Source: Octopus vulgaris | Taxonomy: Eukaryota | DNA length: 64,000 nucleotides | Reading direction: 5' to 3' | Assembly: GCA_951406725.2 (NCBI GenBank) | Contig: OX597838.1 | Span: 1,116,001-1,180,000 of the forward strand | Shown here: in pieces, positions 1 through 58,660 of the stretch | How the letters are laid out: every line of letters begins with the position of its first letter | Numbering within the stretch: position 1 is the first letter of the stretch | The notes under the pieces: generated by a model | What the model was told of the DNA's origin: nothing | Database searches by the model: none | The model's input: the letters and a program-made list of their open reading frames with translations, nothing else | Program-made: the position numbers and the translations under genes

Positions 1-249
1 TCCTCTCTACTGACTTGGTGATCATCATTATCATTGTTTTAACATCCACTTTTCCATGCTTGCGTGAGTTGGACAGTTCATTGAGGTAGATTTTCTATGG
101 TTGAATGCTTTTCCTCTTGCTGACCTTCACCTGTTCCCGAGCAAGTTAATACTTCCTCATGGCCAGACATCTTTTCATTTATAACTATCATGTGATGTCA
201 AGACAATGAGATAAAAACATGTGCATGTATGCATAGCACAGTATAAATG

Positions 250-26126: not shown

Positions 26127-27013
26127 CAGGGTGTGATGGGTAAATTGTTACCATTTTATATTTTTAATTTTGCTCGTGTCCATTGTTTGTTGTTGATTTT
26201 GGCAACTACATAGTATAGTAGGGTCAGTTGGACAAAGCCTGTGAGAAAAATAGCAGCATGACATATTCCACTCTGCCAGAAATTTGGAAATCACATGTTG
26301 TACTGCTTGCCATTCATGCTGGAAGCTCCAATATGAACAGGTGGTGAACACACAGAACATCCGTTGGCTTGCGGCGTCCCCAAAACATGTACTGAGAGTG
26401 ATAAAAATCAAACCTTCAGTGAACATCATGGTGTTTGGAGTGATCACTAGTGATGGTGACATTATGCCTCCATTCACCTTCCCACACTGCCTCAGACTCA
26501 ACATGGATGCCTACATCAAGTGCCTAGGGGTGGAAGTGCTGCACTGGGTCAAGAGGGTAGCTGCTGGAAGATCCTGTATCTGGCAACAGGACTCTGCACC
26601 ATGCCACACAAGCAAGAGAACCTAGTCATTGCTGTCAGACAATTTCTGCAACTACATCATCCCAAATTTCTGGCCACCTAACTCCCCAGACTGCAACTCC
26701 CTTGATTATTATGTGTGGGGCACAGTTGAATGAGAGACCAACAAAACTCCTTGTAACACCAAAGATGAACTGAAGGCAAAGATTATAGCAGCATTCACCA
26801 ACTTAAACAAGGAGACTGTCCGGAAGAGTTGCAGGAGATTCTGAAGTCGTCTGTAGGTCATGGTTGGAGCCAATGGTAATTTTATTGAATATTTACTCAT
26901 TAGTATTTCAAAATGTTTATATGTAATTTTGGTAAATATATCTGTTAAAATGAGATGTCAGTGTTATTTTCATTTTTACGTAATTTAGACGACAGTTTAT
27001 TCACCACACCCTG
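26127..27013 (+). mobile_element. Internally deleted Tc1/mariner element of the DD37D (maT) family
   Basis: TA then TIR CAGGGTGTGATGGGTAAATTGT; matching right TIR ends at 27013. Transposase relic WQQDSAPCHT...WPPNSPDCNSLDYYVWG has 37 residues between the second and third Asp and several in-frame stops. Confidence 0.9.
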
Positions 27014-38216: not shown

Positions 38217-38448
38217 GTATTGAAAGAAATATCCCAGGTAGTAAAATATCTGGCCCTGTAAAAAGGGGACAGTATCATATTCAACAAAACAACAACAATA
38301 ATAATGTTGGTATGATGAGCAGGAAATCAATGGAGCGTGCGGCAGCAGCAGCAGCAGCACCACCACCACCACCACCACCAGTCACACCTCCAACCTCTAA
38401 CATGAGATACTCCCCAAGACAACCAACTACAGATAGTTCTTCTGCCAG
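38217..38448 (+). CDS. SPATA22: SPATA22 exon (SIERNIPGSK...QQNNNNNN...AAAAAAAPPPPPPP...DSSSA)
   Basis: TTGCAG acceptor, AG|GTATTG donor; 232 nt open, phase 1 to phase 2, consistent with both neighbours. Confidence 0.8.
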
Positions 38449-38564
38449 GTATTGCACTTCATCTCTTTCCTTTAACAATCCCTAACTGGGGAACATCAAG
38501 TTAGATTGTGTGAAGAATATTGGTTTCCTTCTTGAGTCATTTGGTTTCCTTCATTTCTTGTTGG

Positions 38565-38599
<35 letters not shown>

Positions 38600-38866
38600 T
38601 ATTAACTATTGATTTATATAATATTTTTGTATGCTTTTGATGTTCTCATTTGTAAAATGAATAAATAATCTAACATTATAATATCCGTAAGTTGATGAAC
38701 AAACTGAATTTGTTTCTCCATTTTCTTATTTATATTATATATATATATAAAGTTAATCCAAACAAGAAAACACAGAAAAAAAGAGAAAAAAATGAGAAAA
38801 AACACAGCAACATATATATATATATATATAAATTAATCAAAATAAAAATATGATGCCAAGGATTCA

Positions 38867-38944
38867 GCGGTATATATGTTTCAGGCCTTTATTAGACGGA
38901 TTTATAACAATGCATAATGTGTGTCTATGGCCTTCTTCAGCCGC
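38867..38944 (-). ncRNA. Second hammerhead copy on the opposite strand with a G-to-A change in stem III
   Basis: Reverse complement reads GCGG CTGAAGA AGGCC...GGCCT GAAAC ATAT ATA CCGC. Identical to the + copy except ATA replaces GTA (position 38873). Confidence 0.75.
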
Positions 38945-39162
38945 GCACAACTACTACCTCAAGGACATGTATTACATCAAAAATTCTACGTTGGGGATGC
39001 AAATCCTCTCATTCGCATACGACATAATGCGGCAACAGCATGGACGAGATGGATGCTTCATTTTTATGCTGTTGCCGCATTATGTCTTACACGAATGAGA
39101 GGATTTGCATCCCCCACATAGAATTTTTGATGTAATACATGTCCTTGGGGTAGTAGTTGTGC

Positions 39163-39240
39163 GCGGCTGAAGAAGGCCATAGACACACATTATGCATTGT
39201 TATAAATCCGTCTAATAAAGGCCTGAAACATATGTACCGC
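39163..39240 (+). ncRNA. Type I hammerhead ribozyme, Penelope-like minimal stem III with palindromic loop
   Basis: GCGG (stem I) - CTGAAGA core - AGGCC...GGCCT stem II (extended by TAGAC/GTCTA) - GAAAC - ATAT - GTA (cleavage after 39236) - CCGC (stem I'). ACATATGT is self-complementary. Confidence 0.85.
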
Positions 39241-40294
39241 TGAATCCTTGGCATCATGTTTTTATTTTGATTAATTTACTCCACCACCTACACCACCAAA
39301 CGGTATATACAGGTGCTTACAATTATCAAGTACTCACCCAGAATTTCTGTACCCAACTCTCTCTCTCTCTCTATATATATATATATTAGAGATGGCTGAA
39401 TTAACTGTTGTTATTGTTGCTGTGACCATCCCATCTTTCTCCAGGACCACATTACCTAACATGCTTTTCCATTTTATAGATGTTGGTATACGATTTGAAG
39501 GCAACCTGGCTGCTATTTTTAGCAAATTGAGTGTAGTTTGAAGTGGTCTGGACAAGTGATGTGAAAACATTAAATGTATTGTGTGCTGATGATGGAAGTT
39601 GGCAGAGAAAGTCATGAATGGAAGGGGTGAAGTGTAGAGCAGAGGATTGAAACAGCCACCTGCCAACCATATTGCCCACCCATCCTGTCTATTCTACAAC
39701 ACAGACATTAAAGCATTGACGTTGACAATGTTGATGATATAAAGGATTCCCACTTGTTGATCAGCTGTCTCTTTGTCCTCCATGTTGATTCGAACAATAA
39801 CAGCAATGTCATTTCTTTGACCTCAACCAATTCCCTTTTCGGTTGTGACTGTGCAACCCAAATGCAAGTGTTTCTTTATTCACTTCTACCATTGGTGCAC
39901 AATACAAGCAACCCACATCATATTTCCACCAATCACACACAGTCTGTTTCGGTGCCATAAACCAATCAATGCCTTTCATGTATGTCTTTGTGTCATCCTC
40001 GTGTCATACATGTAAATTCATTTCTCACAGCTCACTGTTGCAGTTCTCTGGATCATGTGATCCTAGACCAATTTTTTCAAACAGCAACTTGTTTTCAATA
40101 TTTGAATTTGTAAACCTAGCTAATCCACTCTTTTATGACATGAAAATAGTATAAAATATTCCTATTGTTAGTAGGTTGTCAATTATCACTGGTCATGTAA
40201 TGTGTTCCTGTAACAATCTGTAAAGACTCTCCAAGCTCTTTGTCTCTGTGAAAGGTCAAAATTTCAGTTTGAATGTTTTCTCTTTTAATTGTAG

Positions 40295-40478
40295 GTCAAG
40301 CTATAATTGGTCATTTTCTGCTCAGTCCTGTAAATCTGTCTCATCTCCTCAAATGTTTGGTGGTGAATCATTTATTCAGGAAGCTAATGTTGCCGAAGTA
40401 GCACCTGCCTTTAACAATAGACCAAGTAATGAACCTAAACACAGTCCAAGCTATTCTCAGACCAACACATCGTCAAAG
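40295..40478 (+). CDS. SPATA22: SPATA22 exon (RSSYNWSFSAQ...QTNTSSK)
   Basis: TTGTAG acceptor, AAG|GTCAGA donor; phase 2 to phase 0, open frame. Confidence 0.82.
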
Positions 40479-40514
40479 GTCAGAGTTTCATTCTTTCTAT
40501 TTACTTTGATTGAT

Positions 40515-46677: not shown

Positions 46678-46776
46678 TTAGGCTTTCTTCTATGACTAAC
46701 AGTTGGAATTGATATGGATCAAGAGATTAGCAGGAGACAAGAGTACTTTTACATTTGTGTATGTTACTATATTCAT

Positions 46777-47090
46777 TCTCCTGCTAATAATCTTAAATAC
46801 TCCTCTTTTTTACTAATCTCTTAAATACTCTTCCCCCTTATTAATCTCTTAAATACTCCCCTCTACTGCTAATCTGTTAAATACTCCTCTTTCCTGCTAA
46901 TCTCTTAAATATTCCTCTCTACTGCTAATATCAAAATACTCCTCTCTCCTGCTAATCCCTTAGATACTCTTCTCTCCTGCTAATCTCTTAAATACTCCTC
47001 TCTCTTGCTGATATCTTAAATACTCCTCTCTACTGCTAATCTCTTAAATACTCCTCCTTGCTGTTAATATCTTAATATACTCCTTTCTGT
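46777..47090 (+). repeat. Minisatellite, about 11 copies of a 28-nt unit (TCCTCTCTCCTGCTAATCTCTTAAATAC)
   Basis: Units read directly; the array ends immediately before the acceptor at 47096-47097. Confidence 0.95.
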
Positions 47091-47097
47091 ATTGTAG

Positions 47098-47198
47098 GTG
47101 TGCTGGATTCTGCCGTTCTTCCTGACCGAAACCTGTCTGGCAGACAGTTCTTACTCCGTGACAATTCGGATTCTATAGAATGTGTCTTCTACGAAATT
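47098..47198 (+). CDS. SPATA22: SPATA22 exon (GVLDSAVLPDRNLSGRQFLLRDNSDSIECVFYEI)
   Basis: TTGTAG acceptor, GTGAGT donor. Close match to human AVLDSAVTPGPYYSKTFLMRDGKNTLPCVFYEI (recalled). Confidence 0.95.
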
Positions 47199-48707
47199 GT
47201 GAGTAGTTTTTGTTGCTGGACTGTGGGGAGTGACGGGTAGGGGGGAGGTTAGCAATGGGTTCAGTGAGGAGGTGGGGTGGGGGTCAGTAATGGAAAAAGG
47301 GGCTCAATGTCCACCACTACTATTACCACCACCACCACCACCACCGTTTCCATCACTATCAGTATAAACTGATATCTCAGAAGACTGAGATATGATGAAA
47401 GATAGTTTTGTGTGTGTGTATATGCATATGTATGTGTGTTTGTGTGTAATGTGTGTGTGTATAATGTGTATGTTTTATGTGTATATACAGATGTGTGTGT
47501 ATGTACATATATGCATGCGTGTATTATGTGTATGTGTGCTTGTGTATGTTATGTGAAAAAAATAACCAGTTACAGTAGCAACTTCTGAGTCTATGATGAT
47601 CACCATGATGATGATGATGATGATGGTGTTGGTGGTGGTGTTGGTGGTGGTGTATTGTCACTACAGTAGTAGTGATAGTCGTGATTACCAGCTGAAAGGG
47701 ACACATGTCTTTGTTGATACACTGGAATTGAAACCCTGAAGCTCAGGGTTACATTGGGAACCACACACACACACAGGTGGCTTGGGAGATGTAGGGTTCA
47801 CATGTGAACAAGAAGTAAATCTTCTTTCTCTCCCTCCACCCCACCCCACCGCCACCGCCACCACCTCCAGCCTTGAAACTGAGAGTATCTGCCAAAGCAG
47901 TACTCTGTGTCAACAGGCTGATGATACTCAGTGTGTAATTATATTTATTGTGTTCGTTAACATTAAGAGCTTATATTTTTAATAAGCACATCATCTATTA
48001 TGTGACATTTCATACACATCTATGTTTGTTTGTTACCTTGACAACCATGTGATCATATCCTGGCCTCCCAATCAGACTCTCAACTGCTAAATATCATTAC
48101 ATGTTGTCATCACATCTCAACACTTCACTGAAGATGAAGATCATACTATTTATCTTTCTAGTGATGATGATGATGATGATGATGAAGCTGCTAGTGCTGT
48201 TGTTTAACCCCAGGCCTGCTGTAATTCAGCAGCATCCCAATTGTGACCAAATCCTACTTTTTCTTTATTTTCCTAAATACAATAACATATGAGCCAAAGG
48301 AAATTTGACTGCTATTTCTGGCAGGTCAAACAACCATGAAGAGGTTCCTTTGTTGACTCTTTGACAATAATGATGATGATGATTTCCTCTCCTTCCTCAT
48401 CCAGCCATGTCTCATATCAACAAACCGGGTGTTTATACTATCACACTCTCACACACACCATTATAAAACCCATCAGTGTATTTGTCTGTGAAGGGGGAGG
48501 AGACATTACAAACACATCAGCTCTCCTCTCCCCATTGTATCCACCCCCACCCAACCTGCCACTACATCTCTGTCTCCCCACCTCACTGTCAACACCCCAC
48601 CCCTATATCAATGTTGATCATCAACAGAATGGGATAAAAACTATAATTCAATGACATTATATGTGATAGAAATCAATAAGTTTGTATCAATATTATGGAG
48701 GTCAGTG

Positions 48708-57819: not shown

Positions 57820-58660
57820 CGAGCACTTTCAGTAATTGTTGCTAGTTGACTTGCCCCTCCAAGAGCCTAGTTGCAGACCTACTGACCTGTCCTGGTTTAT
57901 GAGTGCACCGGTACATTCCTGATATTCTTTCAGTTTAGTGTCAATCTTTTCTATGTCCAAAGAGTCCGGCACCATGACAGTGATGTTGTCCGTGTATGCA
58001 GGCACAGCTATTCTGTGGAATACCTTCAAATTCTCCATCCTTCACAGCAAGGGTTCTATAGCTAAAATATATAAAAGCAGGGAGAAGGGGCATCCTGAGC
58101 ATTCAATACTGAAAAGTCCCAAGAAGTGGTTCTTCAGTTTGACAACCAAGCAGATGCCACTATATATTGTGATGATCCAATCTCTGAAGAGGGGATTGAA
58201 ACCAACAGCTTTTAGGACAGACACCAGATAACAATGGTTCACCCTGTCAAAAGCTTTGGGTTGTTCCAGATTGACCAGTGCCCTTCCAAAGCCCAATCTA
58301 TTCAGACCTGTTCTACCATGTATCAGATGAGGTGGAGACTGTTGTGCATAGATCTACTGGGGTTTGCACTAGTTTGTGCATCCCCGACAACAAGCGCCAG
58401 CCTCTTGGCTAGCACCTTAGCTAAAATCAGTGTTAAGTTAAGTTAAGGGCCTGACGTTTTCATTCACCTCCTTCTCATTCAGATCCCTTCTCAGCAGCGT
58501 CACCGCTTCCCAACCACATGGCTGGGAATGCTTTCCATCAGTTACCAGGAGCTATTGAAACTAGTTCAAATAAGTCCGACATGTGGGCATATAGTTCATA
58601 GGGCAGACCCTCCAACCCGGTGATTTGCACCCCACACAGTGCCCCAGTACATCTTCCACT
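57820..58660 (-). mobile_element. L1/Tx1-clade reverse transcriptase relic
   Basis: Peptides KAFDRVNH.YL..VLKAVGF, GCPFSLLLYILAIEPLL and AYTDNITV (YADD-like) in shifted frames. Confidence 0.8.

Follow-up and report, generated by a model that had tools for sequence, protein, structure and literature searches.

A hammerhead motif in a SPATA22 intron of Octopus vulgaris: very probably the remnant of a Penelope-like element, predicted to be paired within a long hairpin

The hammerhead ribozymes (HHRs) of metazoan Penelope-like elements (PLEs) are minimal type I motifs with a short stem I and a palindrome formed by positions 15.2-16.2 and loop 3. In the available part of their study, Cervera and De la Pena (PMC4209133) found no cleavage by monomers and low cleavage by dimers of a metazoan PLE HHR, described mostly truncated copies and had already noted opposite-strand pairs lying 100-700 bp apart. 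The octopus motif described here has the same type I order, short stem I and palindrome, and occurs likewise in truncated copies and opposite-strand pairs, but it appears to lack G10.1-C11.1 (A.C in the family, A-U in the copy studied) and its stem II far exceeds the 7-8 bp of these minimal motifs.

As a diagnostic set for the Hydra clade of PLEs, the available text of Craig et al. 2021 (PMC8557442) gives the RWK/DKT, CxCX5C, CxxC and CxH motifs together with the lack of CCHH. Hydra elements are generally smaller than 3 kb there (a typical, not a strict size), enter (TA)n targets, and carry the HHR in the 3' repeat, an inverted 5' copy and a tail at one end; in the rows of File S2 that we could use, 10.1-11.1 is often mismatched (U.U, U.C), U is common at 11.1, and the stem II domain takes at most 26 nt by our own count. 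The octopus family resembles the clade, of which Hydra-1_Obim is an example, in target, repeat arrangement, one-ended tail and mismatch, in placing the reverse transcriptase (RT) before a C-terminal GIY-YIG domain and in its DKT, CxCX5C, CxxC and CxH motifs without CCHH. It differs from Hydra-1_Obim as another family with an unrelated HHR sequence, and from the clade by RWA in place of RWK, a larger unit (about 4.4 kb) whose 3' UTR is long, a tail of about 70-80 nt instead of 30-40, and a stem II domain of 51 nt. The same file provides a precedent for long arms, the Selaginella PLE-X1 elements, two of whose HHRs have a stem II domain of about 50 nt; these are, however, plant elements devoid of endonuclease (EN), with an rDNA target and an unrelated sequence.

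Two further systems are relevant, each as far as the accessible text of the source describes it. In Anolis, the protein of the Poseidon element PAc nicks and extends both strands, priming occurs internally at two sites bracketing the tail, the HHR cleaves only with the protein, and the main template is uncut RNA (Frangieh et al. 2024, PMC11167929). The octopus family shares with PAc the two 3' ends around an AC-rich tail, the AT-rich targets and the read-through of an uncut HHR, although PAc belongs to another clade and its HHR overlaps the ORF start, which in octopus lies about 200 nt downstream of the HHR (first Met). Animal non-LTR retrozymes (bioRxiv 10.64898/2026.07.22.740005) are likewise HHR-bearing, non-coding and PLE-related, and about 43% of the Xenopus copies overlap introns; unlike these tandem units of fixed length, the octopus insertion derives by truncation from an autonomous element.

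From the analysis of a 64-kb stretch of O. vulgaris DNA (hereafter, the window), we propose that the HHR is very probably that of a high-copy PLE, left as a short head-to-head stump in the (TA)n of a SPATA22 intron, where a 213-bp hairpin is predicted to hold it, so that it likely never cuts the host RNA.

The hammerhead motif, its family and its long stem II arm

All hammerhead core elements that a first-pass annotation of the window had placed in type I order were confirmed at their positions (Table 1). Compared with the consensus in the available part of PMC3088659, C3, U4, G5, A6, N7, G8, A9, G12, A13, A14, A15.1, U16.1 and H17 are all matched, and the core is surrounded by stems I, II and III of 4, 5 and 2 bp, stem I being open. 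The stem II domain, whose length had been singled out as unusual, is indeed about twice as long as the longest published Hydra example, and it comprises the AGGCC/GGCCU and UAGAC/GUCUA helices and a third, predicted one. The palindrome, ACAUAUGU, is suited to dimers as had been suggested, its self-duplex being worth -7.0 kcal/mol.

Table 1. Features of the hammerhead motif, the inverted-repeat stump and the host intron (window coordinates)
Feature	Position	Strand	Remarks
Type I HHR motif of the PLE pseudo-LTR (pLTR)	39163..39240	+	sequence; predicted cut 3' of 39236
HHR stem I	GCGG 39163-66 / CCGC 39237-40	+	
HHR core CUGAAGA	39167-73	+	
HHR core GAAAC	39225-29	+	AUAU loop; GUA triplet 39234-36
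Stem II domain, long (51 nt), predicted to form three helices	39174..39224	+	T at 39224 is the minority base
Right arm, 5'-truncated pLTR	39042..39278	+	39042-39065 is the 24-nt hairpin loop
AC-rich tail	39279..39359	+	on one arm only; leader running on into the ORF in full-length copies
(TC)n(TA)n right flank	39360..39386	.	sequence
Left arm, inverted pLTR copy, 213 nt, without tail	38829..39041	-	96% complementary to 39066-39278
Second HHR copy, antisense to SPATA22	38867..38944	-	G16.2>A at 38873
(TA)n left flank / target	38812..38828	.	sequence
SPATA22 intron hosting the insertion	38449..40294	+	GT..AG; protein mapping and spliced contig
SPATA22 exon upstream of the insertion	38217..38448	+	
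SPATA22 exon downstream of the insertion	40295..40484	+	3' end approximate

A strict type I descriptor, composed after the motif had already been seen, gave one match in the window versus a mean of 0.01 (maximum 1) in 100 dinucleotide shuffles. The Infernal-type check that had been recommended failed to recover the motif: Rfam gave no hammerhead match at the gathering threshold or at E<=10, the inverted repeat yielding weak miRNA-hairpin matches alone. A pattern search for short-arm hammerheads returned 5 matches versus 5.8 expected and missed the motif at 39163-39240. Long-arm hammerheads go undetected by Rfam.

The genome-wide check of copy number established that the motif is multi-copy, with 1,395 exact-pattern copies (reversed-pattern controls, 0 matches), and a DNA search of the same genome returned 1,677 candidates, the 40 scored ones being 95-100% identical. 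Family sequence in runs guessed to be RNA, which lacks locus specificity, was left uncounted. The base preceding GAAA is C in 1,372 copies, T in 20 and a purine in three; position 10.1-11.1 is an A.C mismatch in 1,372/1,395 copies and A-U in the window copy, and reading A39174 as an extra base after A9 allows a G-C pair only with a bulged C. The clean AGGCC/GGCCU stem of the window copy thus represents a 1.4% minority derived from a C>T change (20/1,395 copies). This T stands at a CpG and is present in both subfamily backgrounds (1.4% T versus 0.2% purine). Both arms of the window insertion carry it, and the insertion's closest relative, on the same contig, likewise has it in both; the template therefore already contained the T, or conversion spread it. 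Family members have stem II domains of 51 to 61 nt. Three loci (L110, L115 and L123) represent an older subfamily with a stem II arm 9-10 nt longer, L115 showing a compensatory GGCU/AGCC change.

Beyond the family, 4,426 sister motifs, which differ in their stems, have in common a spacer of 38-64 nt and the ACAUAUGU loop (control 0), both of which were imposed by the search pattern itself; linkage of the sister families to an ORF was seen at 1/12 loci with 1.5-kb flanks. The sister HHRs (also those of L124-L135) have a UUUC/GAAA-type stem I and a mostly intact G10.1-C11.1 pair, and cross-family dimers through the shared loop are conceivable. As to the covariation that the first-pass annotation had asked for, the family and its sisters differ on both sides of stem I at 4/4 pairs (one event, two groups), and likewise on both sides of the proximal stem II. 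In 27 distinct ends, pairs 2-5 of the proximal stem II can form in 78-100%, versus 4-22% when slid by 2. RNAalifold found no consensus stem II in the mixed alignment because the arms do not align, and so gave no sign of covariation in the distal arm; folded singly, the arms give z values of +0.3 to -4.3, with a modest -1.8 for the window copy.

No report of this octopus family was found in the open literature searched, and the term 'long stem II' occurred in none of the papers listed there. One might go further and suppose that octopus Hydra-type PLEs share a conserved long-arm HHR (stem II of 51-61 nt, ACAUAUGU loop, about 5,800 genomic motifs across several families that Rfam misses), the arm being a docking site through which the element's own protein triggers dimer cleavage, and intronic head-to-head stumps silencing themselves by pairing; we regard this extended scheme as speculative and rather unlikely.

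A probable head-to-head stump of an RT and GIY-YIG element

An inverted repeat (38829-39041 / 39066-39278; 213 nt, 96% complementary, 24 nt apart) holds the motif in its right arm, and the inverted upstream copy of the motif and its flanks had been overlooked. In the antisense HHR copy, the G16.2>A change at 38873 disrupts both stem III and the palindrome. The PLE stump, from (TA)n to (TC)n(TA)n, spans 38812-39386 and is ORF-less, and the 64-kb window contains no ORF remnant of a PLE. Segment 39042-39359 (318 nt) is 95% identical to an ORF-linked copy (L120), and the insertion, being 96-97% identical to dispersed genomic copies, is young, with no sign of locus-specific conservation. As the family has more than 1,300 dispersed copies, the intronic location of the motif is unremarkable.

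A second, unrelated high-copy repeat end terminates in the same (TA)n cluster (38602-38749, + strand; 1,348 candidates, 93-97% identical over the first 150 nt), and occurs as PLE-like inverted pairs at 2/10 loci. The SPATA22 intron 38449-40294 is an insertion hot spot.

The PLE origin and the linkage to an RT/GIY-YIG ORF, both anticipated in the first-pass annotation, are supported in that the same repeat borders 842-aa ORFs elsewhere in the genome. One arm pair encloses a 397-aa ORF fragment, with which a search scored 104 matches; the fetched loci contain intact ORFs of 835-850 aa with the same repeat downstream and upstream, in direct or inverted orientation. The 842-aa ORFs are flanked by the repeat as a direct or inverted pLTR in L050, L054 and L056. 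In L054, the repeat and its extension continue straight into the ORF, and the repeat-to-repeat distance is 4,394 nt (a unit of about 4.4 kb), above the size typical of the Hydra clade; the (TA)n targets of the family copies agree with those of the clade. The 842-aa protein is encoded by a single ORF and has RWA (a variant) at 45, DKT at 132, YRDD at 363, CxCX5C at 702, VIY/YIG at 721/736, CxxC at 799 and CxH at 829, with one Cys between VIY and YIG and no CCHH; by these motif positions the RT precedes a C-terminal GIY-YIG. The HHR is located in the pLTR of an element encoding both. Pfam and PDB searches gave no RT or GIY-YIG match for this ORF; its nearest Atlas clusters carry GIY-YIG/RVT_1/HTH_animal, a lead only, and by eye it resembles the published rows of Hydra-1_Obim. 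Because Pfam and PDB are silent, the putative Hydra-clade assignment rests on the motifs and on the by-eye match of rows. Assignment to Naiad was dropped, the EN being C-terminal.

The intronic copy and the SPATA22 transcript

That the motif lies within a SPATA22 intron and in the sense orientation, as previously stated, is borne out by exon mapping and by the 38448/40295 junction. A SPATA22-like protein maps as 8 collinear exon blocks over 25900-56963 (+ strand), the exon 47076-47237 matching the Octopus sinensis protein of that name at 94%, and one contig joins 38448 to 40295 across GT..AG; its source run is only guessed to be RNA, and the contig may come from an animal lacking the insertion. 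Pfam did not recognise the SPATA22 exons. Elsewhere in the window, a 28-nt tandem array (11 copies, 46769-47088) lies immediately 5' of the exon acceptor at 47097, a decayed reverse-transcriptase fragment occurs at 58045-58353 (- strand; weak RVT_1 match, E 0.023), and the open frame 26254-26622 (+ strand), with no Pfam match, resembles a piece of Tc1/mariner transposase in a motif seen by eye.

The isolated 78-mer forms stems I, II and III with probabilities of 0.95, 0.99 and 0.10, and the HHR fold is 1.5 kcal/mol away. For the right arm alone this distance is 4.6 kcal/mol, and flanks of 13 and 20 nt lower the probability of stem I to 0.02 and give a fold no more stable than that of shuffles (z +1.42). 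When the left arm is included, it is predicted to pair with 78/78 motif bases, which would leave the HHR fold inaccessible in the host pre-mRNA at a cost of about 120 kcal/mol (MFE); in the MFE structure of a transcript ending at 39240, pairing already takes up 170/175 bases of the right arm. Because the antisense arm is transcribed first, the right arm would be paired by the time the polymerase reaches 39240. The 8-bp trans duplex that the palindrome offers for dimerization (-7.0 kcal/mol) loses to this hairpin, and since there is no second sense copy a cis dimer cannot form. These folds are equilibrium MFE predictions, and the hairpin might come apart in vivo through editing or through proteins. 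Intronic hammerheads should be folded together with their flanks.

The stump might affect its host solely as a long dsRNA hairpin, through A-to-I editing, small RNAs or altered splicing. Its 213-bp, 96% duplex lies 380 nt from the donor site, and cephalopods edit their RNA heavily with ADAR. Such stumps are, however, common in the family, and we consider a dsRNA effect of this sort very unlikely.

Cutting of the nascent intron after 39236, which had been put forward from the motif itself, is not supported by the predicted hairpin pairing, by the lack of a sense partner, or by the accessible findings of PMC4209133 and PMC11167929. An intronic copy that cuts the SPATA22 pre-mRNA (unaided, in trans with RNA of the element, or with the help of a PLE protein) and thereby tunes a meiotic gene would matter far more, if true, and it would agree with the intact core on the sense strand, with the Watson-Crick A10.1-U11.1 pair created by the T, and with the small energy gap of the isolated 78-mer. 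The evidence points the other way. First, the antisense arm is made before the motif, which has no sense partner. Second, the insertion is young (96-97% identical to dispersed copies), and bears no sign of locus-specific conservation. Third, the T occurs at a CpG in both subfamily backgrounds and outnumbers purines (1.4% versus 0.2%), as decay predicts. We therefore hold an active intronic ribozyme to be extremely improbable; the motif is very probably part of an ordinary transposon remnant, and on the predicted folds cleavage of the host RNA is unlikely.

Copy ends and a proposed route of insertion

The 3' ends of the copies cluster near +42 and +106..118, counted from the cut site, where they pass into (TA)n. 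Among 37 head-to-head pairs, which include two tandem duplicates and were in part selected for their tail, the tail is found on one arm in 31 and on both in none (0/37), the regular expression having missed variant tails. For the tail, folding gives a weak AC-rich stem-loop (about -9 kcal/mol), with its base at the first end point. At the 5' side, 0/56 tail-bearing copies start at +1 of the cut site (one starts at -2), which agrees with uncut RNA serving as template, as the available part of PMC11167929 reports for Anolis. Likewise, none of the 30 loci with an ORF start has a 5' end at the cut site; three of them (L104/L105/L109, G000:C4:23559130-23559712) are one locus of tandem and inverted units (-4..+241) that start at -4, near, but not at, the cut, and the junction keeps the GUA triplet.

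We propose that internal priming explains the stump. By analogy with the Anolis enzyme, as described in the accessible text of PMC11167929, the PLE protein would nick both strands of (TA)n, and reverse transcription would be primed within the uncut RNA, about 42 nt beyond the cut at one site and about 110 nt at the other, giving two short outward-facing cDNA arms, one of them tailed. In the active element, the ribozyme would operate as a protein-assisted dimer via ACAUAUGU, whereas in the SPATA22 intron it would be a passenger. Our findings add an octopus Hydra-type family to the PLEs, and the anatomy of its insertions, with two 3' ends, a single tailed arm and an uncut ribozyme, fits the internal-priming model, previously demonstrated in vitro for another PLE clade.

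A non-autonomous retrozyme or MITE family, spreading itself through HHR-cut circular RNA, would also be ORF-less and short with long inverted arms, and might account for the 13/30 top matches that start at -193..-218 and for the four copies sharing a -133 start, but it is extremely unlikely in view of the collinearity of the sequence with pLTR plus leader in autonomous copies, the arm lengths that differ from copy to copy as variable truncations of an ORF-bearing element rather than a tandem non-coding unit of fixed length, the drop of the 5' cluster to 3/26 in an independent sample, and the lack of any unit seen starting at the cut site. The -193..-218 cluster was accordingly rejected as a start site (3/26 new loci, 4 duplicates dropped).

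The four copies starting at -133 (L166, L177, L178 and L179) lie on one contig with a similar TA-rich upstream flank, and may be a short sub-lineage or a segmental duplication. In L008/L034 (G000:C1:113257008-113257785), the arms are separated by tandem repeats of 60 nt taken from the 5' region of the pLTR, an arrangement that suggests repeated template jumps.
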